IMG/VR virus record: IMGVR_UViG_3300017643_000016
Length of the DNA: 36,099 bases
Reading direction: 5' to 3' (one strand)
DNA from: a virus
In this document: positions 1 through 36,099 of the stretch, piece by piece
How positions within the stretch are numbered: position 1 is the first letter of the stretch
Layout of the letters: every line of letters begins with the position of its first letter
Notes under the pieces: generated by a model
Told to the model about the DNA's origin: nothing
Seen by the model: the letters and a program-made list of their open reading frames with translations, nothing else
Databases searched by the model: none
Program-made: the position numbers and the translations under genes

Positions 1-128
<128 letters not shown>

Positions 129-145
129 TCGTTATCCTAAATCCT

Positions 146-385
146 ATGGCGACGCGATTTATTATAATCGGAAATAACGAAAATGCGGAAGCGATTTCTC
201 TCACAGAAAAAGAAATCGCAACCATGAAATATCTTATTGAGGGGGATAGCCATGGGGAAATTGCCATGAAGCTTGGAATAAGCGAGAGGATGGTATCTTT
301 GCGGATTATGAATATAAAAAAGAAAACAGGAGCTCGAAGCGCCATTGAGGCGGCCGCTAAATTGATAAAGCTCGGATTGGTGTGA
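146..385 (+). CDS. LuxR/GerE-family HTH transcriptional regulator (79 aa, HTH domain only)
   Basis: LTEKEIATMKYLIEGDSHGEIAMKLGISERMVSLRIMNIKKKTGARS fits the LuxR C-terminal HTH pattern. The ATG at 146 is preferred over 125, which overlaps the tRNA fragment. A terminator follows. Confidence 0.75.
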   Translation: MATRFIIIGNNENAEAISLTEKEIATMKYLIEGDSHGEIAMKLGISERMVSLRIMNIKKKTGARSAIEAAAKLIKLGLV

Positions 386-420
386 CTTCCTGTTTTGGTA
401 GATTGATTGAAATGAAAAAA

Positions 421-463
421 AGATTTACTTTTGTAGTAGAGACAAAGTAAATCTTTTATTATT
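421..463 (+). terminator. Rho-independent terminator after the LuxR-type gene
   Basis: AGATTTACTTTTGT (421..434) pairs with ACAAAGTAAATCT (442..454) with one bulge. It is followed by TTTATTATT. Confidence 0.7.
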
Positions 464-475
464 GGTGAGGTGAAT

Positions 476-1499: not shown

Positions 1500-1592
1500 G
1501 GAGGGGCTATGAAAAAGTTTTCACCCTTCAAAAGTAAACCGTGCGTAGGTTTTCCGCGCGAAAATTTCCCCGATCAAAACTGATAAAAATGG

Positions 1593-6485: not shown

Positions 6486-7637
6486 ATGTCGAATACTCTT
6501 ACTGGTTTGATCCCAACCATCATGCTTGCCCTGGATACCGTTTCTCGCGAGCAAGTTGGATTTATTGGGGCTGTGCTGCGTGATGCTTCGGCAGAAAGAG
6601 CCGCCCTTGGTCAAGTAATCACCTGGCCAGTTGTCGATGCCGGCGGAGATCCAGCCGATATCGCACCGGCTGCCACAGGGCCAAACCCAGCTGATATGAG
6701 CGTGGATGCCCCACAGGCAACGATCAGCAAAGCCAAAAGCAAAACTTTCTACCTCACCGGTGAAGAAGGCAAAGGTCTCTCGCAGACTTCTGCGTTTGAC
6801 ACAGTTGTGAAGAATTCATTTGCGCAGGCGTTCCGTGCGCTTGTTAATCAGATCGAAGCCGATCTGGCCACTACCGCTATCCAAAACGCTTCGCGCGCAT
6901 ATGGAACCGCAGGTACCACGCCATTTGCAACTGCAGGTGATCTGACCGATCTGACAGAAACAAAACGTATTCTGAAGGATAACGGTGCACCAATTACTGA
7001 CCTTCAGCTCGTGCTGAACTCTGCGTCAGCCTCGAAATTAGGAGGCAAGCAGAGCAACCTTTTCAAGGTGAACGAAGCCGGGAACGATCTTTTGCTGCGT
7101 GAAGGCGTGATCGGTCAGCTCGAAGGGTTTATGACCCACGAGTCCAGCCAGCTTGGACTGCACACCAAAGGTACTGGTGCCAATTATGTGACCAGCGGCG
7201 CCACAGCCGTCGGCGTGGAAGACATTGCACTGGTTACCGGTACAGGAACCGTTCTGCCCGGCGATGTGGTGACCTTTGCGGCAGACGCAAACAACAAATA
7301 CGTAATCAACACCGGCGTAACTGAGCCCGGAACCATTTCACTCGGTAAACCAGGCGCGCGCGCGGCAATCGCCACCGGGAATGCCATGACCATCGGCAAC
7401 AGTTATACCCCGAACGTCGCGTTCGACAGAAGCGCTCTCATGCTGCTTACCCGGGTCCCAGCAGCGCCAAAACAAGGCGATTCGGCAATCGACGCCATGA
7501 TCGTACAAGACCCAGTAACCGGTCTGTCTTTCGAAATCCGCGTTTATGCCCAGTATCATCGCGTTGCTTTCGAAGTTGGAATCGCCTGGGGTTATAAAGC
7601 AGTCAAATCAGAGCACATTGCTCTGCTGCTTGGTTAG
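6486..7637 (+). CDS. Major capsid protein
   Basis: 383 aa with a strong GGAGG RBS, positioned after the protease and scaffold-like genes. Composition is rich in A, G and T, as in HK97-fold coat proteins. Confidence 0.75.
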
Positions 7638-9567: not shown

Positions 9568-10033
9568 TCTTCTGTTCGGACCAGAAGTTTGGGGTAAGGA
9601 GATCGTCAAACTATGGGCGGGAATCAAGGACGCCAAGAAAACAAGTGTGGCATCGTATGGATTCGAGACGATCCCGGATGCAATCTTGCGGACCCCGACG
9701 GCAATCTCTTTCATTGCAGACGCAATGGATGCCAATTACAACCAGGCCGGCCAAAATCAGGCTACCTGGCGGGGGTGGACGGAGTTCTACCTTTCGAGCG
9801 GGCTAAACCGGTCGGGGCTGGCCTATGTCAACCAGTTCTACCGCTTGATCGTGGTACAGGCATCACAAAAGTTCTATCTCACTCCGACTGCTGTTTTCTA
9901 TTTGCAGTCGACGAAGACCATCGAACTGGATATTCTCAGCTTCACCGGTAAAGATGAAGATCAATGCTATGGAGTAAGGGCTTACTGGCAGGTTGATGAA
10001 TCACTGGCTGACAAGATCAGCTTCAAATTATAG
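9557..10033 (+). CDS. Hypothetical neck/tail-completion protein (158 aa)
   Basis: Overlaps the upstream gene by 11 nt. The call rests on position only. Confidence 0.45.
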   Translation: MANNLLFGPEVWGKEIVKLWAGIKDAKKTSVASYGFETIPDAILRTPTAISFIADAMDANYNQAGQNQATWRGWTEFYLSSGLNRSGLAYVNQFYRLIVVQASQKFYLTPTAVFYLQSTKTIELDILSFTGKDEDQCYGVRAYWQVDESLADKISFKL

Positions 10034-10053
10034 GTATCAATTGGAGGAAAAAA

Positions 10054-11067
10054 ATGAGTGCACCAATTTTAGGGAAAATGCAGATCGGGAAAGAAACCGC
10101 ACACGGAACGGCTGTGGCGGCAACGAAAATGCTCTTCGCCACTCAAGGGCCAATCCCATCCGACCGAAAGGTAACGGCGCTAAGCCCGGACATCGGGAAA
10201 AATGTAGAAACCACCGGGCGGATGCTGCAGGGGGTGCTGGCACAGGATTCACTCACATTCGATCAGCTTTATTTCGGAATTCTGCCGACGCTTTTGTCTG
10301 GGCTGCTCAAGGGCGGAGTAACGCCGGTGGAACAAACTGTGGGTGAGGGAGATTACCTCTGGGATCACACTCCCGGTTTGGGAGACACTGACGATAACAC
10401 TCCGAATTCGTTCACTCTGGAACGCGGGGATAACATCCAGGCGGTGCAAATCGCTCACGTGATGTTCAAATCTCTCAAATTGGACTGGCAGGTGAATCAG
10501 GACGGCGGCGAGAGCAGCGTAAAAGCCTCTGTCGATTATTTCGGAAAGGCAAACGTCAACCACGCATTCACAGCCGGTCTATCTGTCCCGACTTTCATCC
10601 CATTGAATGGGAAATTATGCCAGGTGTACTTCGATACCCTCATGGCTGACGTCGGGGATACGGAGATCAGCGATTTTCTGCGGTCGGGAAGTCTGGAAAT
10701 CAGCGGCGGGTTGGTGCCTGATTTCAACGGTGGGGCAAGCGAAGAGTTTACTTCTTTTCACCAAGGGCCCATTTCAGCGATGCTGACGCTGACCGTGAAA
10801 CGGGGTGCTGCCTCTGAGGCCATGCGAGCCGCGATCAATGAGACGCGTGCCTGCCGGCTGAAATTCAACGGCCCTCAGATCGGTGACGGGGTCAACAATA
10901 TGCTGCAGTTCGATCTTTTCGGATACGTTGATGATGTGGTACCCCTGGCCCAGACTGACCGCAACAAATCAGCCAATCTGGACACCATGGTGCTGCACAG
11001 CATCTATGACCCAATCAGCGGTAAGGTCATCGTTCCGCAGATCATCACTGACATTGCCACCCTGTAG
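10054..11067 (+). CDS. Major tail (tube) protein, by position
   Basis: 337 aa with a GGAGG RBS. It lies immediately upstream of the chaperone pair and the tape measure. Confidence 0.5.
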   Translation: MSAPILGKMQIGKETAHGTAVAATKMLFATQGPIPSDRKVTALSPDIGKNVETTGRMLQGVLAQDSLTFDQLYFGILPTLLSGLLKGGVTPVEQTVGEGDYLWDHTPGLGDTDDNTPNSFTLERGDNIQAVQIAHVMFKSLKLDWQVNQDGGESSVKASVDYFGKANVNHAFTAGLSVPTFIPLNGKLCQVYFDTLMADVGDTEISDFLRSGSLEISGGLVPDFNGGASEEFTSFHQGPISAMLTLTVKRGAASEAMRAAINETRACRLKFNGPQIGDGVNNMLQFDLFGYVDDVVPLAQTDRNKSANLDTMVLHSIYDPISGKVIVPQIITDIATL

Positions 11068-22499: not shown

Positions 22500-22916
22500 C
22501 ACCTGGCCGGTGGAGATCACGCTCAAAGCCGGCCAATTAAGTACGATCTTTGAAAATTGAATATGGCGGCGGCGTGGTAGGAACACGCACAGCATATCTG
22601 TTTTGGTAGACGATGACCGAGCGGTGAGAAATCCCCAGCCCTCAGGGCAGAAGCAATGATCTGCATAGAGGTTCCGCGAAATTTAGGGAAAACTTGGCAA
22701 CATCTAATCTAACAATCCAAAAATCAGGTGACAGATCGGGATAGAAATACATCCAAATCCTGACCGCCAAACTTAGCAATAACTGTGGTGTCCAGTAGAT
22801 ACTATCGGAACGATGGGCGAAAGGCATATCCGAGCCACCGATTGCGACACTCTCGCTCGATCACACTACTCAAGAAATGGAGACGGAGAGGGGCCGGTGA
22901 AACCCCGGCATAGTTA

Positions 22917-30864: not shown

Positions 30865-30968
30865 TGGTCAGATGCGGAGAGGAAACTGAAGGCGATAAGC
30901 ATACCTGCAGAACTTGTGACTGCTCAATGTGTCCGTGGAAAATTGCAAAAACCGGAACGAACGGGTGA
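30864..30968 (+). CDS. Possible 34-aa Cys-rich micro-ORF (MVRCGEETEGDKHTCRTCDCSMCPWKIAKTGTNG)
   Basis: The ATG overlaps the upstream stop (ATGATG). The stop TGA at 30966..30968 lies 2 nt before the ATG at 30971. It is below the ORF-track size cutoff. Confidence 0.25.
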   Translation: MVRCGEETEGDKHTCRTCDCSMCPWKIAKTGTNG

Positions 30969-30970
30969 AA

Positions 30971-32053
30971 ATGATCAACCGTGAAAACTGGCTCGACACA
31001 AAAGAATATCTTGGCTATCTGGGCCGGGTGCGTCAACTGGATGAAAAGACCATCCACCGCCGGCGCGAGCAGCTCACGCATTTGCTCGAATGGGCAGACG
31101 CGAAATCGCTTGGGCAATCACGGGAGATCGATCCGACCTTCCCGGTCTACCTGCAAACTTCACGGCGCGACGGGGTAGGGTCTGCTCTGGCTCCATCCAC
31201 GATGAAGGCTACCTGCAGCGTCGTGCGCGGGTTCTTCGAATGGGCCCGACAGGAGATGCCACGAAAATATGGACGGATCAGTCAATCGTGGATCGATTCG
31301 CTCAAGCCGGCCAGGGCATACGGGATGCAGACCGAAGTCAAACATCATGAATTTTTTACCTATGATGAAATGTTGCGTATAGCGAGCCTGAACATTACCA
31401 CTCTTTTCGAGGAACGCGCTCAGGCCATCGTCTGTCTGGGATACCTTTCGGGAATGCGGGCGGATGCTCTGGTGACGCTGCCGATCAGTTGCATCGACAT
31501 CCACAAGCGGGTAGTGTACCAGTATCCGAGTGCCGGGGTGCGTACGAAAAACCACAAGGCAGGGCAGACGCCGATCCTGCCGCTGCCGAAAATCTATGAT
31601 GTGGTCTGCGCGTGGGATGATAAAGTGCGCTCTCTTCTTCCGGTTGATTCGCTATGGTGCGCTGCCATTGACCGGATGGGTGAAAATCTTGTTGCCAAGA
31701 ACGTTGCTTCCGCCGGCCGCCGGCAAATCCTTGAGAAATCGATCCGCCTGGTGTGCGAAATGGCCGGGGTCAAATACCGCAACCCGCACCAGCTCAGGCA
31801 TGGGTTTACCGTTTACACAGTGAAGCGGGCAAAGAACCTTGAACAATTGAAAGCGATCAGCCAGACCTTGATGCACGAATCCGTGGGAACTACCGACCGA
31901 ATTTATGCCGCCCTGGCTGGGGATGACGTGCAGGCTGTCATCGATAGCCTGGCCTCCGAGCCGGCCAGCGGTGATCTTGATTTCGACGGGCTGCGTGCTC
32001 TGGCAACAGTGCTTAAAGAGCATCCGGGAGTTCTGGATGCTCTGGGAAAATAA
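30971..32053 (+). CDS. int: Tyrosine recombinase/phage integrase
   Basis: The catalytic-domain signatures are MRADAL (Arg), HQLRHGF (HxxR) and LMHESVGTTDRIY (His and the Tyr nucleophile). The alternative start at 30929 would overlap the micro-ORF. Confidence 0.9.
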   Translation: MINRENWLDTKEYLGYLGRVRQLDEKTIHRRREQLTHLLEWADAKSLGQSREIDPTFPVYLQTSRRDGVGSALAPSTMKATCSVVRGFFEWARQEMPRKYGRISQSWIDSLKPARAYGMQTEVKHHEFFTYDEMLRIASLNITTLFEERAQAIVCLGYLSGMRADALVTLPISCIDIHKRVVYQYPSAGVRTKNHKAGQTPILPLPKIYDVVCAWDDKVRSLLPVDSLWCAAIDRMGENLVAKNVASAGRRQILEKSIRLVCEMAGVKYRNPHQLRHGFTVYTVKRAKNLEQLKAISQTLMHESVGTTDRIYAALAGDDVQAVIDSLASEPASGDLDFDGLRALATVLKEHPGVLDALGK

Positions 32054-32054
32054 A

Positions 32055-32861
32055 ATGGATGGAATTTGCCGAATTTGCGGTCTTGAATCTTCTGGGGTCG
32101 ATTTCGATTCCTGGGTAAAGGACACCTTCACCAATTATGACCTTCTACACCCGGGGAACATCATCTGCAATGCGTGTGTGTTCTGGTTTGATCAGCGTTC
32201 TGCCCAGTTACAAAATCTAATGGGTAAAGACAAGCCGCAGAAGATGCAGAATTACAGCCATTTTGTTGTAGATGGCGAGTGGATCCCAGTGGGAAAAGGA
32301 AATAAAGCCAGAATGGCAGAATTACTGCTTGGAAAGCAATTCCCGGAACTGGCAGTAATCGCCGTAAGTGGTCAGAAGCATCTGGCTTTCAGGGCCCGCA
32401 GAAATGTATCTGGAAGAGATTGCGGATGGGTCCAGTTTGAAGAGAAATCCATCTGGGTGGAGCAGAGTTCTTTGAAAGAGATGATCTTCAATATCGAACA
32501 GCTTTACAGCGTCTTCTCAAAAGGAGAAATCGAGACTGGACACTACTACCCGTCGCGGATCATTGATTTTGGGATGGAGAGATGGAAGTTTTTCGAGGAT
32601 AAGATCAAGCCGGCAAGAAAGACGGCTTTGTTTCAATTGAGTCTATTTTTGGCACAAAGGAGTGACGATGGAACCGGAGAATTCGAAACAAGCGGAAGTG
32701 GCGACGATGCTCTCGATCTTGTGGAGGGGAATTCCCCTGGATTACAAGAGCAAATACCGGATGACGATCTGGGAGCAGTTCGAGAACGAGATCAGAGCGG
32801 CAGCATACACCAGCAAGCTGACGAAGTTCGTCAACTCAATTTCTTCGAGAATGCAGATTGA
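32055..32861 (+). CDS. csf1: Csf1-like (type IV Cas8-like large subunit) zinc-finger protein
   Basis: The N-terminus has CRICG...(30 aa)...CNAC, a CxxC/CxxC finger. It is the first gene of a Cas11, Cas7, Cas5 cluster. The ATG at 32055 is 1 nt after the int stop. The last ~65 codons overlap the next gene out of frame. Confidence 0.6.
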   Translation: MDGICRICGLESSGVDFDSWVKDTFTNYDLLHPGNIICNACVFWFDQRSAQLQNLMGKDKPQKMQNYSHFVVDGEWIPVGKGNKARMAELLLGKQFPELAVIAVSGQKHLAFRARRNVSGRDCGWVQFEEKSIWVEQSSLKEMIFNIEQLYSVFSKGEIETGHYYPSRIIDFGMERWKFFEDKIKPARKTALFQLSLFLAQRSDDGTGEFETSGSGDDALDLVEGNSPGLQEQIPDDDLGAVRERDQSGSIHQQADEVRQLNFFENAD

Positions 32862-33033
32862 AGTCGGCAGAAATGAAGAAGAACGGGCGGTATTCGAAAA
32901 GATACTGCAGACTGCAGATGATCGGACCGTTCTCAAGATGCTGAGAGAAGAAACAACCATCCTTGTATTGAAGGTCAGAGTGGATAACGAAGAAAAGCGG
33001 GCCGAGTGGAAAGCCAGAAATGAGGAAAAATAA
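32668..33033 (+). CDS. cas11: Cas11-like small subunit (121 aa, helical)
   Basis: AAGGAG (32657..32662) lies 5 nt before the ATG at 32668. The size, helical and charged composition, and position between csf1 and csf2 match the type IV-B layout. Confidence 0.55.
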   Translation: MEPENSKQAEVATMLSILWRGIPLDYKSKYRMTIWEQFENEIRAAAYTSKLTKFVNSISSRMQIEVGRNEEERAVFEKILQTADDRTVLKMLREETTILVLKVRVDNEEKRAEWKARNEEK

Positions 33034-34007
33034 TGCGCACCTATATTTTCGAAGGAATCATGACTGCCCAGACAAGCATTTCCCATATTGGGGAGACTTT
33101 CGGGATCAACGCAAAACTGCGCCGCGAAAAGATCATCCAGCCAGATGGAACGGTTGAAGAAGTGCCGATCATTTCAGGGAACGCGATTCGGGGCATCCTG
33201 CGTGATCGCGGAATGCTGCACATGCTCAAACTGTTGGGTTATGGCATCAACGAAGAGACAGGCGAGGTAAACGGTCTTAGCCTGGCAGCCTTTTACTTTT
33301 TATTCAGCGGTGGATCGCTGACGAAATCAGGGAATGCCGGCATCGACGTGGATGAAGCACGCCGATGGAGAAAACTGATCCCGCTCGTCTCAATCTTTGG
33401 GGGAGCGATGGGTAATCAGATCATGCCGGGGGCTGCGAAAATCGGCAAAGGGATCCCAATTTGCAAGGAAACAGCCCATCTGATTCCACAGAGATTCGTA
33501 ACAGGAAATGAACAATCCATTTGGGATATGTGCCAGGAAGAGGCATACACACGGAGAGACGACGAGAAAAACGAGCATTTGCGTATGCTGATCGCCCCTG
33601 AAGTACGCGGATTATTGGAAGCGGACGCTGCCTACAAGCGCGAAAAACGAGGAACGTCTGAAGAAGTCGCGGGAGAGACCGGTCAATCTCAGCAAATGCG
33701 CTATTTTGTAGAGACCCTGGCCGCCGGAACGCAGTTGTTTTTCGACGTCTCCCTGGATGATGTTAGTGACCTGGAATTCGAAGCTTTCTGCGTCACATTG
33801 GCTGAATTTGGCCGTCTGCCTTATTTGGGCGGAAAATCCAATGTCGGGCATGGCAAGGTATCTATCAAGTTCGATAACTGGATTGAGATCAACCCGCGCC
33901 TTGCCCCGGAAGGGAAAAAACTGGACTCTCCGCTCGGAACGAAATATCTGCAACATCTCAAAGAGAACGGAAACGCTATCCGGGAGATCATCAATGGACT
34001 CCAGTAA
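33033..34007 (+). CDS. csf2: Csf2 (type IV Cas7-family RAMP backbone subunit)
   Basis: ISGNAIRGILRD, FSGGSL, SIFGGAMGN and the C-terminal YLGGKSNVGHGKV glycine-rich loops are RAMP/Cas7 signatures. TAATG coupling to the upstream gene. Confidence 0.75.
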   Translation: MRTYIFEGIMTAQTSISHIGETFGINAKLRREKIIQPDGTVEEVPIISGNAIRGILRDRGMLHMLKLLGYGINEETGEVNGLSLAAFYFLFSGGSLTKSGNAGIDVDEARRWRKLIPLVSIFGGAMGNQIMPGAAKIGKGIPICKETAHLIPQRFVTGNEQSIWDMCQEEAYTRRDDEKNEHLRMLIAPEVRGLLEADAAYKREKRGTSEEVAGETGQSQQMRYFVETLAAGTQLFFDVSLDDVSDLEFEAFCVTLAEFGRLPYLGGKSNVGHGKVSIKFDNWIEINPRLAPEGKKLDSPLGTKYLQHLKENGNAIREIINGLQ

Positions 34008-34683
34008 TTTTGAAAATCTCCGGGTGCGCGCCTGGATGCAGTCACCAATTGTAAGTGATGATTGGTGCCCACTGGATGGCGCTTTGCTTTATCAATTCGT
34101 CCGCGAAGATCTGGGTTATCAGGAAGTCACGATATCAGGAGCATCCTTGTTGGAGCAGCCGAAGGGCGAGCCAATGCGCGGCGGAAGGATGCCGATTGCG
34201 GTAGTGCATGGTAAATACTGGTATTATCGATGCTCCTGGGCGGTGTTTGGTCCGTATATGGATGGTCAGGATTTTTGGAATAAACGATTCAGCGCAAGCC
34301 ATGCCGACCTGATCGATTTCAAAGGAAAACGTGGAAAAATCGATACCAGCTCTTCGATCTATAAGGCATATCGAATGCCTGTGTTTTATCGTTCTGCTTT
34401 ATGGATCGAATGGTATTTGCGCTGTGATGTTGATTGGCTGAAATCCATTCTTCCAATGGTCACTCATTTGGGAAAGAAGACCAGCCAGGGGTGGGGAAAG
34501 GTGCTCCGCTGGGAAATCAACAATGCTGAATCTGACATTAGCATCTGGAAAGGGAAAAAATTGATGCGCGGGATCCCTTTGCGGGATTGTCCAGAAGATC
34601 ATTTTGTGAATAAAGTGGGTCTTTATGGAATAAGACCCCCGTACTGGGATAAACGCAATCAAATGGAGCTGGTATTGCCGTGA
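33994..34683 (+). CDS. csf3: Csf3 (type IV Cas5-family RAMP)
   Basis: The N-terminus has PLDGALLY and the C-terminus has the glycine loop LGKKTSQGWGKV. 229 aa, overlapping csf2 by 14 nt. Confidence 0.65.
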   Translation: MDSSNFENLRVRAWMQSPIVSDDWCPLDGALLYQFVREDLGYQEVTISGASLLEQPKGEPMRGGRMPIAVVHGKYWYYRCSWAVFGPYMDGQDFWNKRFSASHADLIDFKGKRGKIDTSSSIYKAYRMPVFYRSALWIEWYLRCDVDWLKSILPMVTHLGKKTSQGWGKVLRWEINNAESDISIWKGKKLMRGIPLRDCPEDHFVNKVGLYGIRPPYWDKRNQMELVLP

Positions 34684-35297
34684 TCTCCGAAGAGGATCTG
34701 CTCGATATTGCTGACCATGCAACCAGATCGCTGATCAAACGCGTTTTGATCGGGGCGAGGATCAGTGATGCAGAGGCAGATGATATGCGTCAGGCGGCTG
34801 TTTTGAAACTGCTGTTGTATGGTCAAAAGCATGATCTGAATATCGGCATGAGGCCTTTGCTTTTCGTGATTGCCAAACATGCGGCATTTGAGTGGATTTA
34901 CTGGTGGCAGCATAATATCCGTAATTCGGCCTATTTTTGCGGAAACAGAATGGCAAACTCTGAGCAAAGGAAATCAATCCAGGTAATCAGTCTCGATGGT
35001 ATTGAGGATTCCGGTTATCAGCCGGCCGCAGAAATTCCAGATTTAGCAACAGAGCCTCTTCCGAAAGAGGTGAATGACCAACTTTATAAAATCCTGTGCG
35101 ATGAACGAAAAAAGAAAGGAATGCGCGGAACAATGGCGGCGGTAAGGGATATTCGAATCATCAATTATGTGGTCATGGGCTATAACAATACCGCCATTGC
35201 CAACGAACTGAATTCTTCTGGAAGGGATATCAGCCATTACAGGAGATCGATTCAGAAAAGGCTTTCTAATCATTTGAATAAGCGAGTTCGTTCATGA
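34680..35297 (+). CDS. Sigma-70 family (ECF-like) sigma factor-like protein
   Basis: Region-2-like segments are DAEADDMRQAAVLKLL and LLFVIAKHAAFEWIYWW. The region-4 HTH-like segment is GYNNTAIANELNSSGRDISHYRRSIQKRL. The GTG start overlaps the csf3 stop, and the stop overlaps the next ATG. Confidence 0.5.
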   Translation: MISEEDLLDIADHATRSLIKRVLIGARISDAEADDMRQAAVLKLLLYGQKHDLNIGMRPLLFVIAKHAAFEWIYWWQHNIRNSAYFCGNRMANSEQRKSIQVISLDGIEDSGYQPAAEIPDLATEPLPKEVNDQLYKILCDERKKKGMRGTMAAVRDIRIINYVVMGYNNTAIANELNSSGRDISHYRRSIQKRLSNHLNKRVRS

Positions 35298-35972
35298 TCG
35301 ACGAAAATATTTATTGGCAATACTCAAAACTGGATTCGTTCAAAAGAAAGGTCAACAACGCCGAAAGTTTGATCAATCTAGCCTTCTCTAAGGCGAGAAA
35401 TTGGTACGTTTCTACGTCTTGGGGGAAAGACAGTATTAGCCTGGTCGATATGGTAAGGAATATAAGACCGGAAATAGAAGTCGTGTTTATCGATGGTGGG
35501 ATCGAGCTATTAGAGATAGATCGTGAATCTATCGAGAGTTATGTGAAAAAAAATAAGATAAATCTTATCCATTTGAAGTGGAGTAAATTGGATTATCTTA
35601 GAGAAGAAAAGAAAAATGAAAAAGGAGATGCAAAGAAGATTCTTTATAATTCAATGTTTGCCCCGTTGAATAACTGGCTGAAAATCCGTCCAGATATCAA
35701 TGGTGTTTTTATGGGGCTGAGACGAGAAGAAAGCAAAATCCGGTATTTATCAATTGGGAAATTTGGCCCATTGCATGAATATCAGTCTGGAAGCAATAAG
35801 GGATTATGGAGATCGTTGCCTTTATTTGATTGGAAGACCATCGAGGTTGGTGCTTATGTGGTCTCTCGAGGACTGCCAATTTTAGATATCTATAAGAAGA
35901 TGGGGTTCGAAGCAAGGTCCGGTATGTTCGGATTTGGCTCTTCTCAATTCGGCAGATTCGCCTATCTGAAGC

Positions 35973-36099
<127 letters not shown>

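Follow-up and report, generated by a model that had tools for sequence, protein, structure and literature searches.

No CRISPR-Cas subtype is less well understood in its function than type IV-B. It lacks an array, a nuclease and any known target, and only a CysH-like protein is conserved as its partner (PMC7038947, PMC8175902). A figure legend of Shmakov et al. (2018) names an unspecified 'HTH' gene among the genes drawn in IV-B loci. In dCas12f-sigmaE, a nuclease-less effector and an ECF sigma factor together carry out RNA-guided transcription (Hoffmann, Wiegand et al. 2025, PMC12259090; structure in PMC12259091).

Canonical IV-B loci, known from the plasmid of Mycobacterium sp. JS623, from Rhodococcus and Mycobacterium plasmids and from Skermania phage SPI1, are composed of csf1-cas11-csf2-csf3 and a cysH-like gene. 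Phages also encode sigma-like proteins: gp36 of phiEco32 is a phage-encoded ECF-like sigma factor, and the RinA/ArpU/Ltr superfamily consists of sigma-like phage late activators. Here we describe a stretch of viral DNA of 36,099 nucleotides (the window) with the same set of IV-B genes as the canonical loci and, between csf3 and cysH, a gene for a sigma-like protein.

The IV-B operon and its phage genome

The first 127 nt of the window are identical to its last 127 nt, giving a circular unit of 35,972 bp and bearing out the circular map drawn in an earlier sequence-only reading. The genome is that of a circular temperate phage and contains a complete type IV-B operon of the order csf1-cas11-csf2-csf3-X-cysH, X being the sigma-like gene. 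PADLOC type IV models and a PAPS_reduct match recovered the neighbours that the same reading had assigned to this gene. The relevant features are as follows.

30929..32053, + strand: tyrosine integrase gene, directly 5' of csf1 (PF00589, 7.2e-10; XerC-like NCBIfam matches)
32055..32861, + strand: csf1, Cas8-like large subunit (PADLOC Csf1_0_IV, 1.5e-23; TIGR03114, 8.5e-06; gene call of contig L001)
32662..33033, + strand: cas11, type IV small subunit (PADLOC Cas11_1_IV, 3.2e-29)
33033..34007, + strand: csf2, Cas7-like (PADLOC Csf2_0_IV, 7.3e-81; TIGR03115, 9.6e-16)
33994..34683, + strand: csf3, Cas5-like (PADLOC Csf3_0_IV, 1.1e-43; TIGR03116, 2.4e-14)
34680..35297, + strand: sigma-70-family-like gene, 205 aa, GTG start (profile, family and structure-model evidence)
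35294..36037, + strand: cysH-like gene, PAPS-reductase/PP-loop family (PF01507, PAPS_reduct, 4e-13; phrog_2302, 1.7e-17)
125..385 (start 125 or 146), + strand: solo LuxR/GerE-type HTH gene (GerE, 40.7 bits)
96..131, - strand: stretch resembling a tRNA 3' end, T-arm and acceptor strand, read by eye (copy at 36068-36099 from the terminal overlap)

Other in-frame starts of csf1 lie at 32037 and 31905, and cas11 probably starts at the ATG at 32668, within the 3' part of the csf1 ORF and in a different frame. The LuxR-type gene, already recognised near position 146..385 and confirmed by its GerE match, comes next after cysH when the map is closed to a circle; a hairpin and a T-run lie 3' of it. The att fragment postulated beside it stood up only in part: by eye it looks like a tRNA 3' end and is a possible attP core, but neither ARAGORN nor Rfam called it. 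The 36 kb contained no direct-repeat families and no CRISPR array, and Rfam returned tRNA alone for the genome, with no guide or other ncRNA. Cas6 and DinG had no matches among the six operon proteins, the genes outside the operon having been scanned in part. The IV-B genes and the sigma-like gene together form a block at the boundary between early/replication genes and an HNH-terminase module, both in the window and in the related locus L050. The sigma-like ORF was ruled out as the small terminase subunit, given that a Terminase_4 gene is already present at 1593-2033.

The GTG of the sigma-like ORF is the first start codon 3' of an in-frame stop. As had been noted from the letters, the ORF overlaps both neighbours, through GTGA with csf3 (GTG at 34680-82, csf3 stop TGA at 34681-83) and through ATGA with the cysH-like gene (stop TGA at 35295-97, cysH-like ATG at 35294-96). 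The translational coupling proposed as a clue to function proved uninformative. Overlaps of 1-4 nt are the norm on the + strand of this tightly packed phage genome, as seen in the ORF table, and are therefore no special sign of a partnership with csf3 or cysH. Homologues with 53%, 47%, 35% and 32% identity occupy the equivalent slot on other contigs, so that the ORF is not a chance ORF; it is a real gene and looks expressed.

Sequence and predicted structure of the sigma-like protein

Searched as a single sequence, the protein passed no curated sigma model. The HMMER check that had been proposed gave no match to Sigma70_r2 (PF04542) or Sigma70_r4 (PF08281), and TIGR02937 (sigma70-ECF) aligned along the whole length at E=0.08 and 12.6 bits (cutoff 42.9). 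The best single-sequence match was GerE, with 23.3 bits against a cutoff of 23.5 (aa 156-196). The HTH clan of GerE also includes sigma-4, and this score cannot tell the LuxR/GerE family from the sigma family. The single sequence also gave 0 matches with phmmer against the PDB, none in PHROGs and just a weak CARF-HTH match in PADLOC. Two word-indexed homologue searches yielded almost nothing, and the relatives came from an exhaustive HMMER scan. Sigma70_r2 was matched by 11 of these 58 relatives, Sigma70_r4_2 by 13 and GerE by 40 (E<=0.01); the Sigma70_r2 matches of relatives were sub-threshold, with 22.2 bits for P0003. One relative, RLC88742.1, comes from a MAG assigned to Chloroflexota.

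A profile built from 17 full-length relatives aligned with solved ECF factors at significant E-values: sigma-H (3mzy) at E=4e-6 over profile positions 30-189, 7qh5 over both domains at E=3.7e-5, and the sigma-2 domain of SigL at E=5.8e-5. Consistent with this, hhalign against a hand-entered sequence of E. coli sigmaE placed both domains collinearly (E=1e-4). The sigma region-2 and region-4 segments initially read from the sequence are thus weak in the single protein but significant with the family profile and the structure model. The sigma-2-like part retains the D-x-x-Q signature of region 2.1/2.2, with D35 invariant, followed by an aromatic-rich helix. A basic motif specific to the family, R-x-K-K-G-x-R-G-x-x-A-A-x-R-D (aa 143-157), precedes the HTH, in whose recognition region R188, Y187, I191 and L195 are nearly invariant. 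The C-terminus has few residues beyond the last helix of the HTH domain (aa 181-204) and forms no extension.

From the single sequence alone, AlphaFold gave no usable model (pLDDT 40). The AlphaFold model with a pLDDT of 89.3 has two helical domains, a sigma-2-like three-helix bundle (aa 4-78) and a four-helix HTH of the sigma-4/GerE type (aa 129-204, pLDDT >95), which are joined by a linker of ~50 aa (aa 79-128) predicted with low confidence. In Foldseek searches against the PDB, nearly all of the best 20 matches were ECF or other sigma factors (prob 0.97), with modest E-values (0.03) and low TM-scores that we attribute to a flexible arrangement of the domains. The best structural matches in BFVD were phage sigma factors (E=7e-4, prob 1.0). 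LuxR-type regulators aligned to the final ~70 residues only, whereas sigma factors aligned to the full length. The structure prediction that had been suggested as a check therefore agrees with a sigma-type fold whose nearest structures are ECF and phage sigma factors. Together, the sequence and the model indicate that the protein belongs to the sigma-70 family, as a phage-specific and highly diverged member with a minimal group-4 (ECF-like) architecture. No anti-sigma gene adjoins it, its neighbours being csf3 and the PAPS-reductase-family gene.

Recurrence at the csf3-cysH junction

A survey of IV-B neighbourhoods, as the sequence-only reading had recommended, revealed that the insertion recurs. 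In eight diverged lineages (L001, L031, L054, L050, L055, L012, L002 and L003) the slot between csf3 and cysH holds a member of the same family, with ~25-53% identity to the window protein. Several deep branches of the sigma-like family are fixed at this position in one phage IV-B clade. Among the members associated with IV-B, the family tree robustly separates at least two groups; monophyly of these members as a whole was unsupported, but the tree is star-like. The use of the same site by at least two separate groups would be unexpected for a generic late regulator and favours a closer tie to IV-B. The assumption that the layout was undescribed also held: we found no account of a sigma-like gene in an IV-B operon in the searchable type IV literature.

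In six more related loci, the slot contains an unrelated HTH gene. The proteins in L004 and L022 match Sigma70_r4_2 and that in L005 matches HTH_23, in each case above the Pfam cutoff, while those of L006, L009 and L010 have sub-threshold HTH matches only. None of the six has a sigma-2-like part, and the proteins of L004, L006, L009 and L010 are ~110 aa long. The sigma-like gene is absent from 8 of the 24 loci of the window's phage clade. In eight related phages csf3 is followed directly by cysH and no family member lies within +-10 kb, indicating that phages of this group can do without the factor. Most IV-B loci, sampled plasmid loci included, have no sigma-like gene.

Family proteins are 170-220 aa long. 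Where the context is known, 8 of 14 members are in IV-B loci; the other six occur in phage contexts with no csf genes nearby, for example 3' of a SNF2 helicase gene or ~4 kb upstream of terminase genes. Contig searches with family alignments added no contigs beyond those already known, and a metagenome scan provided one locus. A search with a degenerate nucleotide pattern that encodes the basic motif retrieved two true members outside IV-B and one chance match. Matches in Lachnospiraceae MAGs from a genome scan were HTH-only, did not match the family HMM and were not counted as members. A test of whether the sigma-like gene and cysH have diversified together was negative, as the alleles assort independently. 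Between the window and L002, identity is ~25% for the sigma-like protein and 90% for csf2.

We also searched for promoters. No promoter motif attributable to the sigma-like factor was found, and sigma-70-like sites were no commoner in the genome than in shuffled sequences. The sole shared intergenic motif was a 13-mer of borderline significance, and the regions upstream of late genes in the window and L050 had no motif in common. In L050, the IV-B block is followed by an operon of small genes and then HNH. Upstream of this operon lie a leader hairpin and a good promoter of the sigma-70 type, for which antitermination is a better fit than a dedicated sigma factor.

Possible roles and comparison with known systems

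Our tentative preference is for a phage transcription factor that is co-expressed with IV-B and whose timing is tied to it, but which is not a subunit of the Csf RNP. The gene would lie in the distal part of a long early operon and share its transcription and translation with Csf1-Cas11-Csf2-Csf3 and CysH. Its sigma-2-like domain would bind the core of host RNA polymerase and its sigma-4 HTH would bind DNA, so that a dedicated set of phage promoters could be switched on, probably with no direct contact to Csf. A general phage transcription-factor role is supported by the six family members in phage contexts outside IV-B, by the location of the block at the early/HNH-terminase boundary, by the differing HTH proteins in the slot of related loci, and by the independent assortment of sigma-like and cysH alleles. 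The data are explained at least as well by an ordinary transcription factor of the phage that shares a transcript with IV-B as by the effector wired to transcription that had been proposed from the sequence.

That effector would have the sigma-like protein as a functional partner of the Csf RNP and/or CysH, with the RNP or the HTH locating a nucleic-acid target and the sigma-2-like domain recruiting or diverting RNA polymerase to that site. We regard this as unlikely, even though the fixation of the gene in one slot across eight lineages and at least two tree groups speaks for it, as does the share of family members found in IV-B loci considering that IV-B is rare in phages. Other HTH genes, of the sigma-4 type in at least two cases, take the same place in the six further loci of the clade, and the lack of an anti-sigma neighbour is reminiscent of the dCas12f-sigmaE loci, where a CRISPR effector devoid of nuclease activity is already known to work with an ECF sigma (PMC12259090, PMC12259091). 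An output directed at RNA polymerase would also fill a gap, since IV-B has neither a nuclease nor a known output (PMC8175902). Against such a partnership, the protein has nothing like the C-terminal extension that binds dCas12f, the genome has no CRISPR array, guide or Rfam guide RNA, most IV-B loci lack the gene, and some family members have no csf genes nearby; moreover, variation among the sigma-like alleles does not follow that of cysH, and these alleles have diverged much more quickly than csf2. The boldest version, in which a sigma-like protein is a dedicated subunit of the Csf RNP in one phage IV-B clade, target choice falls to the RNP or to the sigma-4 HTH, and host RNAP is recruited or hijacked through the sigma-2-like domain, appears similarly unlikely.

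A local DNA-binding regulator is conceivable but doubtful. Such a protein would use only its GerE/sigma-4-type HTH, to repress or activate the IV-B/cysH operon or a nearby phage promoter; it would not serve as an RNAP subunit, and the N-terminal bundle would be a sigma-2-derived domain for dimerisation or sensing. The GerE matches of the protein and of most relatives, the single-domain HTH proteins in the slot of the six sister loci, and the general observation that HTH regulators embedded in defence and mobile-element modules are common are all in line with this. However, the N-terminal domain aligns significantly to the sigma-2 domain of solved ECF factors and keeps D-x-x-Q, the full-length structural matches are sigma factors, and the gene is the fifth of six, while autoregulators are usually first in an operon or divergent from it. 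It is very improbable that the protein is a host-takeover decoy. Such a sigma mimic would have no specific promoters of its own and would shut down or reprogramme transcription in the host by tying up either the RNAP core or an anti-sigma factor of the host. The sigma-like fold with its highly diverged surface and the place in an early operon would suit a decoy, and so would fast evolution: the window and the near-identical contig L001 differ at 5 nt, three of which are in the sigma-like gene and all three non-synonymous. Yet the HTH recognition region is well conserved, and its near-invariant residues argue for DNA binding and against a decoy.

Returning to the preferred reading of a co-expressed phage transcription factor, the csf3-cysH junction of phage IV-B operons emerges as a hot spot for transcription-factor cassettes, and a recurrent third partner from the transcription machinery provides an experimental lead on IV-B function. 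If Csf and the sigma-like protein were coupled, IV-B would gain a transcriptional output and a first mechanistic handle on its function, and the CRISPR-sigma alliance seen in dCas12f-sigmaE would extend to phages and to systems of class 1. Should they not be coupled, a new and very diverged family of phage sigma-like proteins is still defined. This is relevant for annotation, as the inspected database records of family proteins are nameless or 'hypothetical protein'.

Compared with known systems, the window protein is similar to group 4 (ECF) sigma factors such as E. coli sigmaE, M. tuberculosis SigH and SigL, and Fusobacterium sigma-H (3mzy) in its ~200 aa, its sigma-2 and sigma-4 domains, the D-x-x-Q signature with an aromatic-rich helix after it, and the C-terminal HTH. 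It differs from them in failing every curated sigma model, in a sigma-4 domain that scores better as GerE/LuxR, in the RxKKGxRGxxAA basic motif before the HTH, in its ~50-aa linker, and in having no anti-sigma gene, although a cognate anti-sigma is typical of ECF groups and not universal. Phage ECF-like sigma factors (in BFVD, entries from Agrobacterium phage Atu_ph04 and Cronobacter phage GAP52 that are annotated as such) are likewise small, two-domain proteins and provide its best viral structural matches. Unlike the window protein, none has been reported within a CRISPR-Cas operon, and tblastn of the window protein against 50,697 deposited phage genomes gave no match.

With dCas12f-sigmaE, the window shares an operon that joins a nuclease-less, CRISPR-derived effector to an ECF-like sigma without an anti-sigma partner; the dCas12f-sigmaE loci, too, have associated HTH genes. 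dCas12f-sigmaE is a class 2 type V system with a single effector and a defined guide RNA, whereas the system of the window is type IV-B, belongs to class 1 and lacks both an array and a guide; the C-terminal extension of sigmaE that mediates dCas12f binding has no counterpart here, and the window-type association is limited to part of one phage clade. Canonical IV-B and the window are alike in having no array, cas6, adaptation genes or nuclease (in the window, genes outside the operon were scanned in part), but no sampled canonical locus contains a sigma-like gene. The position of cysH varies: on the Rhodococcus fascians and Mycobacterium adipatum plasmids, the two sampled actinobacterial plasmids where it is clear, cysH is upstream and divergent, while in Skermania phage SPI1 it is directly 3' of csf3.

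Finally, solo LuxR/GerE regulators and RinA/ArpU/Ltr late activators have the four-helix GerE/sigma-4 HTH in common with the window protein, which adds a sigma-2-like N-terminal domain and matches no RinA/ArpU model. The window gene is upstream of cysH, not directly before terS as in RinA/ArpU/Ltr-type activators, but like them it lies near the early-late boundary, at one conserved position that is occupied by differing regulator families.

A sigma-like gene within a phage type IV-B operon

The sequence-only reading had placed a sigma-70/ECF-like gene inside the type IV-B operon, translationally coupled to both neighbors. The ORF listing and the sequence bear this out: the csf3 stop and the ORF start overlap as GTGA (...TTG CCG TGA, GTG at 34680), and the ORF stop and the cysH start overlap as ATGA (...CGT TCA TGA, ATG at 35294). 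Since overlaps of the same type occur at most plus-strand gene junctions of the window, they indicate tight operon packing rather than a special partnership. The five genes flanking the ORF are the textbook IV-B set.

Genes of the operon and the adjoining regulator
csf1: PADLOC type IV match, 1.5e-23
cas11: PADLOC type IV match, 3.2e-29
csf2: PADLOC type IV match, 7.3e-81
csf3: PADLOC type IV match, 1.1e-43
34680..35297, plus strand: sigma-like ORF, 205 aa; GTG is the earliest possible start past the upstream stop in the ORF listing
35294-36037: cysH-like gene, PF01507, 4e-13
125-385: solo GerE-type gene, GerE 40.7 bits

The window ends (1-127 and 35973-36099) are identical over 127 nt, which makes the window a complete circular or terminally redundant phage genome of 35,972 bp and places the GerE-type gene next after the cysH-like gene; the LuxR-type HTH gene proposed across the circular junction is present. 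The circular order runs integrase, csf1, cas11, csf2, csf3, sigma-like ORF and cysH, followed by a stretch that, on inspection by eye, resembles the 3' end of a tRNA (neither ARAGORN nor Rfam calls one there), the GerE-type gene, a hairpin with T-run, two membrane-protein genes, HNH and the terminase genes. The phage is a temperate tailed phage that encodes HNH, small (Terminase_4) and large terminases, a tyrosine integrase, tRNA-Ser, SSB, two methyltransferases and, from the minus strand, a CI-like HTH_3 protein. No CRISPR repeat array was found in the window, and a tRNA was the sole RNA found by an Rfam scan of it.

At its 3' end, the csf1 ORF runs ~190 nt into cas11 in another frame (32662-32861). 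The Csf1 profile match stops near 32655, and the Cas11 match spans residues 13-121 of an ORF of 123 aa. This overlap of stop-to-stop ORFs recurs in most related loci (L002-L027); on L001, the gene caller gave a cas11 of 60 aa only.

Sigma-factor similarity of the gene product

Searched as a single sequence, the product scored 23.3 bits for GerE (cutoff 23.5; aa 156-196) and E=0.08 for the sigma70-ECF model TIGR02937 (aa 18-198), and PHROGs and PDB sequence searches with it gave zero matches. An exhaustive HMMER search of 1.84 billion cluster representatives recovered 65 relatives, mostly of 130-240 aa with two much longer; the four closest share 53, 47, 35 and 32% identity. Among the 58 aligned sequences (the window protein plus 57 relatives), 40 matched GerE, 13 Sigma70_r4_2 and 11 Sigma70_r2. 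The alignment retains a region 2.1/2.2 signature, D-D-M-x-Q-x-A, with D35 invariant, then an aromatic-rich helix (Y-x-F-V-x-A-x-x-A-A-x-x-W-x-x-W-W) and, ahead of the HTH, a family-specific basic motif (R-x-K-K-G-x-R-G-x-x-A-A-x-R-D).

A profile of 17 full-length members matched solved sigma factors in both halves, including Fusobacterium sigma-H (3mzy, E=4e-6, profile positions 30-189), the sigma-2 domain of M. tuberculosis SigL (E=5.8e-5) and Streptomyces SigG1 (both domains). With hhalign, both domains were collinear with those of E. coli sigmaE (E=1e-4, probability 56%).

The single-sequence structure model was poor. AlphaFold with the 58-sequence alignment reached a pLDDT of 89.3 and predicted three helices (aa 4-78), a low-confidence linker (aa 79-128) and four helices (aa 129-204). 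Of the top 20 Foldseek matches in the PDB, nearly all were ECF or other sigma factors, the best being 6jcy_F (E=0.033, probability 0.97); TM-scores were low, which in our view reflects a different arrangement of the two domains about their flexible linker. In BFVD, the matches were to phage proteins that carry a sigma-factor annotation (E=7e-4, probability 1.0). From the profiles and the predicted fold, we conclude that the product has a group-4 sigma architecture (sigma-2 plus sigma-4) that lies beyond every curated model. The earlier observation is confirmed; the proposed region 2 and region 4 similarity is supported at the level of family profile and predicted fold, but the single sequence passes no curated model.

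Recurrence and exchange at the csf3-cysH junction

A csf2-based scan of IMG/VR yielded 26 related phage loci, each searched in full with the window Csf and CysH proteins and the family HMM.

Arrangements in related phage loci
After csf3, sigma-like family member then cysH: L002, L003, L012
After csf3, homologous ~110-aa HTH proteins in a csf3-cysH gap of ~270-400 bp: L004, L006, L009, L010
After csf3, other HTH protein: L022 (Sigma70_r4_2, 32.8 bits), L005 (HTH_23)
After csf3, AAA_33 kinase-like gene alone: L016
After csf3, gene of no assigned kind: L008
After csf3, cysH directly: 8 loci
cysH between csf2 and csf3: the more distant L019, L020, L021, L024
No cysH within 3 kb: L014
Interrupted csf2: L025, L026

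Within the ~110-aa HTH family, only the L004 protein exceeds the Pfam cutoff for Sigma70_r4_2 (25.9 bits, cutoff 25.7). The junction also holds a sigma-like gene in L001 (nearly identical to the window), L031 (P0002, 53% identity), L054 (P0003-type, 47%; then AAA_33, then cysH), L050 (P0004, 35%; full operon) and L055 (P0005, 32%; an AAA_33 kinase-like gene probably next). The neighborhood survey thus finds the insertion again, with family members in eight lineages at 53% to ~25% identity to the window protein, and sigma-like, HTH and AAA_33 kinase-like genes make the junction a cassette hot spot. L021 apparently has two csf3-like ORFs. In L025 (6411-6902) and L026 (217-708), the csf2 match ends at residue 163 with unrelated sequence beyond; their operon is interrupted or rearranged.

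Six other family members do not adjoin csf genes (L032, L036, L053, L056, L028, L029); that of L032 follows an SNF2 helicase, and L053 has SNF2 plus a PAPS_reduct/DUF3440 gene 2.8 kb downstream. The neighbor-joining tree is star-like, with IV-B members in at least two robust groups and their joint monophyly in only 4/100 bootstraps. Loci lacking the gene at the junction had zero family members within +-10 kb by the family HMM, and among the canonical IV-B loci sampled the gene was absent from Skermania phage SPI1 and from IV-B plasmids of Rhodococcus, Mycobacterium, Frondihabitans and Gloeobacter. Within a single phage clade, moreover, only some members show the association, and it does not extend further. 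A search of 185,579 species genomes gave no relative apart from HTH-only matches. The database entry for the sigma-like protein of L012 (P0020) is RLC88742.1, named as a hypothetical protein, on a 47.8-kb contig of a Chloroflexota MAG; nothing else hints at the phylum that hosts these phages.

Between the window and L002, identity is 90% for csf2, 68% for csf3, ~25% for the sigma-like protein and 30% for cysH. The sigma-like protein of L031 shares 53% with that of the window, but its cysH shares 67% with that of L002 and only 30% with the window's, so that the sigma-like gene and cysH were exchanged independently. The window cysH is an outlier (at most 32% identity to any other clade cysH, where csf3 reaches 68%), and its GC content of 38% against 49.5% for the genome likewise suggests a recent replacement. 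Its best NCBIfam matches are PRK08557/PRK13795-type proteins, not bona fide CysH. Across the 5.3 kb from integrase to cysH, the window and L001 differ at 5 nt, 3 of them in the sigma-like gene (34680-35297 versus 10001-10618) and all 3 non-synonymous (nominal binomial p ~0.013, a small sample). These differences fit fast evolution and could reflect diversifying selection or sequencing noise.

Possible roles and comparison with described systems

That the effector is wired to transcription, as the sequence-only reading proposed, we treat as a hypothesis. The reading we favor, tentatively, is a phage sigma or transcription factor that is co-expressed with the IV-B genes and would be predicted to bind RNA polymerase. 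Consistent with this are the sigma-like predicted fold, the family members in phage contexts without IV-B, and the position of the IV-B and sigma-like block at the early/late boundary in both the window and L050. Sister phages carry unrelated HTH proteins at the same junction, which resembles phage late activators (RinA/ArpU/Ltr superfamily), where different regulator families at one position are typical. A smaller chance falls to a plain HTH regulator whose sigma-2 domain is degenerate. Slightly less probable to us is a true Csf/CysH partner that would couple the RNP to RNA polymerase: the csf3-cysH position is strikingly constant over deep branches, no anti-sigma gene lies beside the ORF, and dCas12f-sigmaE set a precedent in 2025 (PMC12259090, PMC12259091), but there is no guide, the protein has no C-terminal extension, the gene is patchily distributed, and it assorts independently of cysH.

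A promoter search for the sigma-like factor in the window and L050 gave no usable motif. The 13-mer CTGTTTTGGTAGA occurs in two key intergenic regions of the window, at 390-402, just past the GerE-type gene and ahead of the membrane-protein/HNH/terminase block, and at 22598-22610, at the divergent junction of minus-strand lysogeny and plus-strand early genes; with a chance expectation of ~0.1 such matches, the 13-mer may serve as an operator or as part of a promoter. L050 has a near-consensus sigma-70-type promoter (TTACTG-17-TATAAT with TG; 6600-6870) upstream of the small-gene block before HNH, then a strong GC-rich hairpin and T-run, and the window (386-469) has a hairpin and T-run at 420-465. 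The downstream, presumably late, genes may be under antitermination control. The HNH-terS intergenic regions (window 1500-1592, L050 8200-8295) share AAAAAGTTT followed by an inverted repeat and, after it, ACCG, which may be the cos/packaging site of this HNH-dependent terminase group.

A full-text search of openly accessible papers for IV-B and a sigma factor returned nothing relevant, and the principal surveys and reviews of type IV name neither a sigma nor an HTH partner of IV-B (PMC7038947, PMC8175902, PMC11656645). The association is real, recurrent and undescribed in the literature open to search. The CRISPRicity preprint draws an unspecified 'HTH', alongside SSB and an N6-methylase, among the genes of IV-B loci in prophages, and these loci resemble the layout of the window phage.
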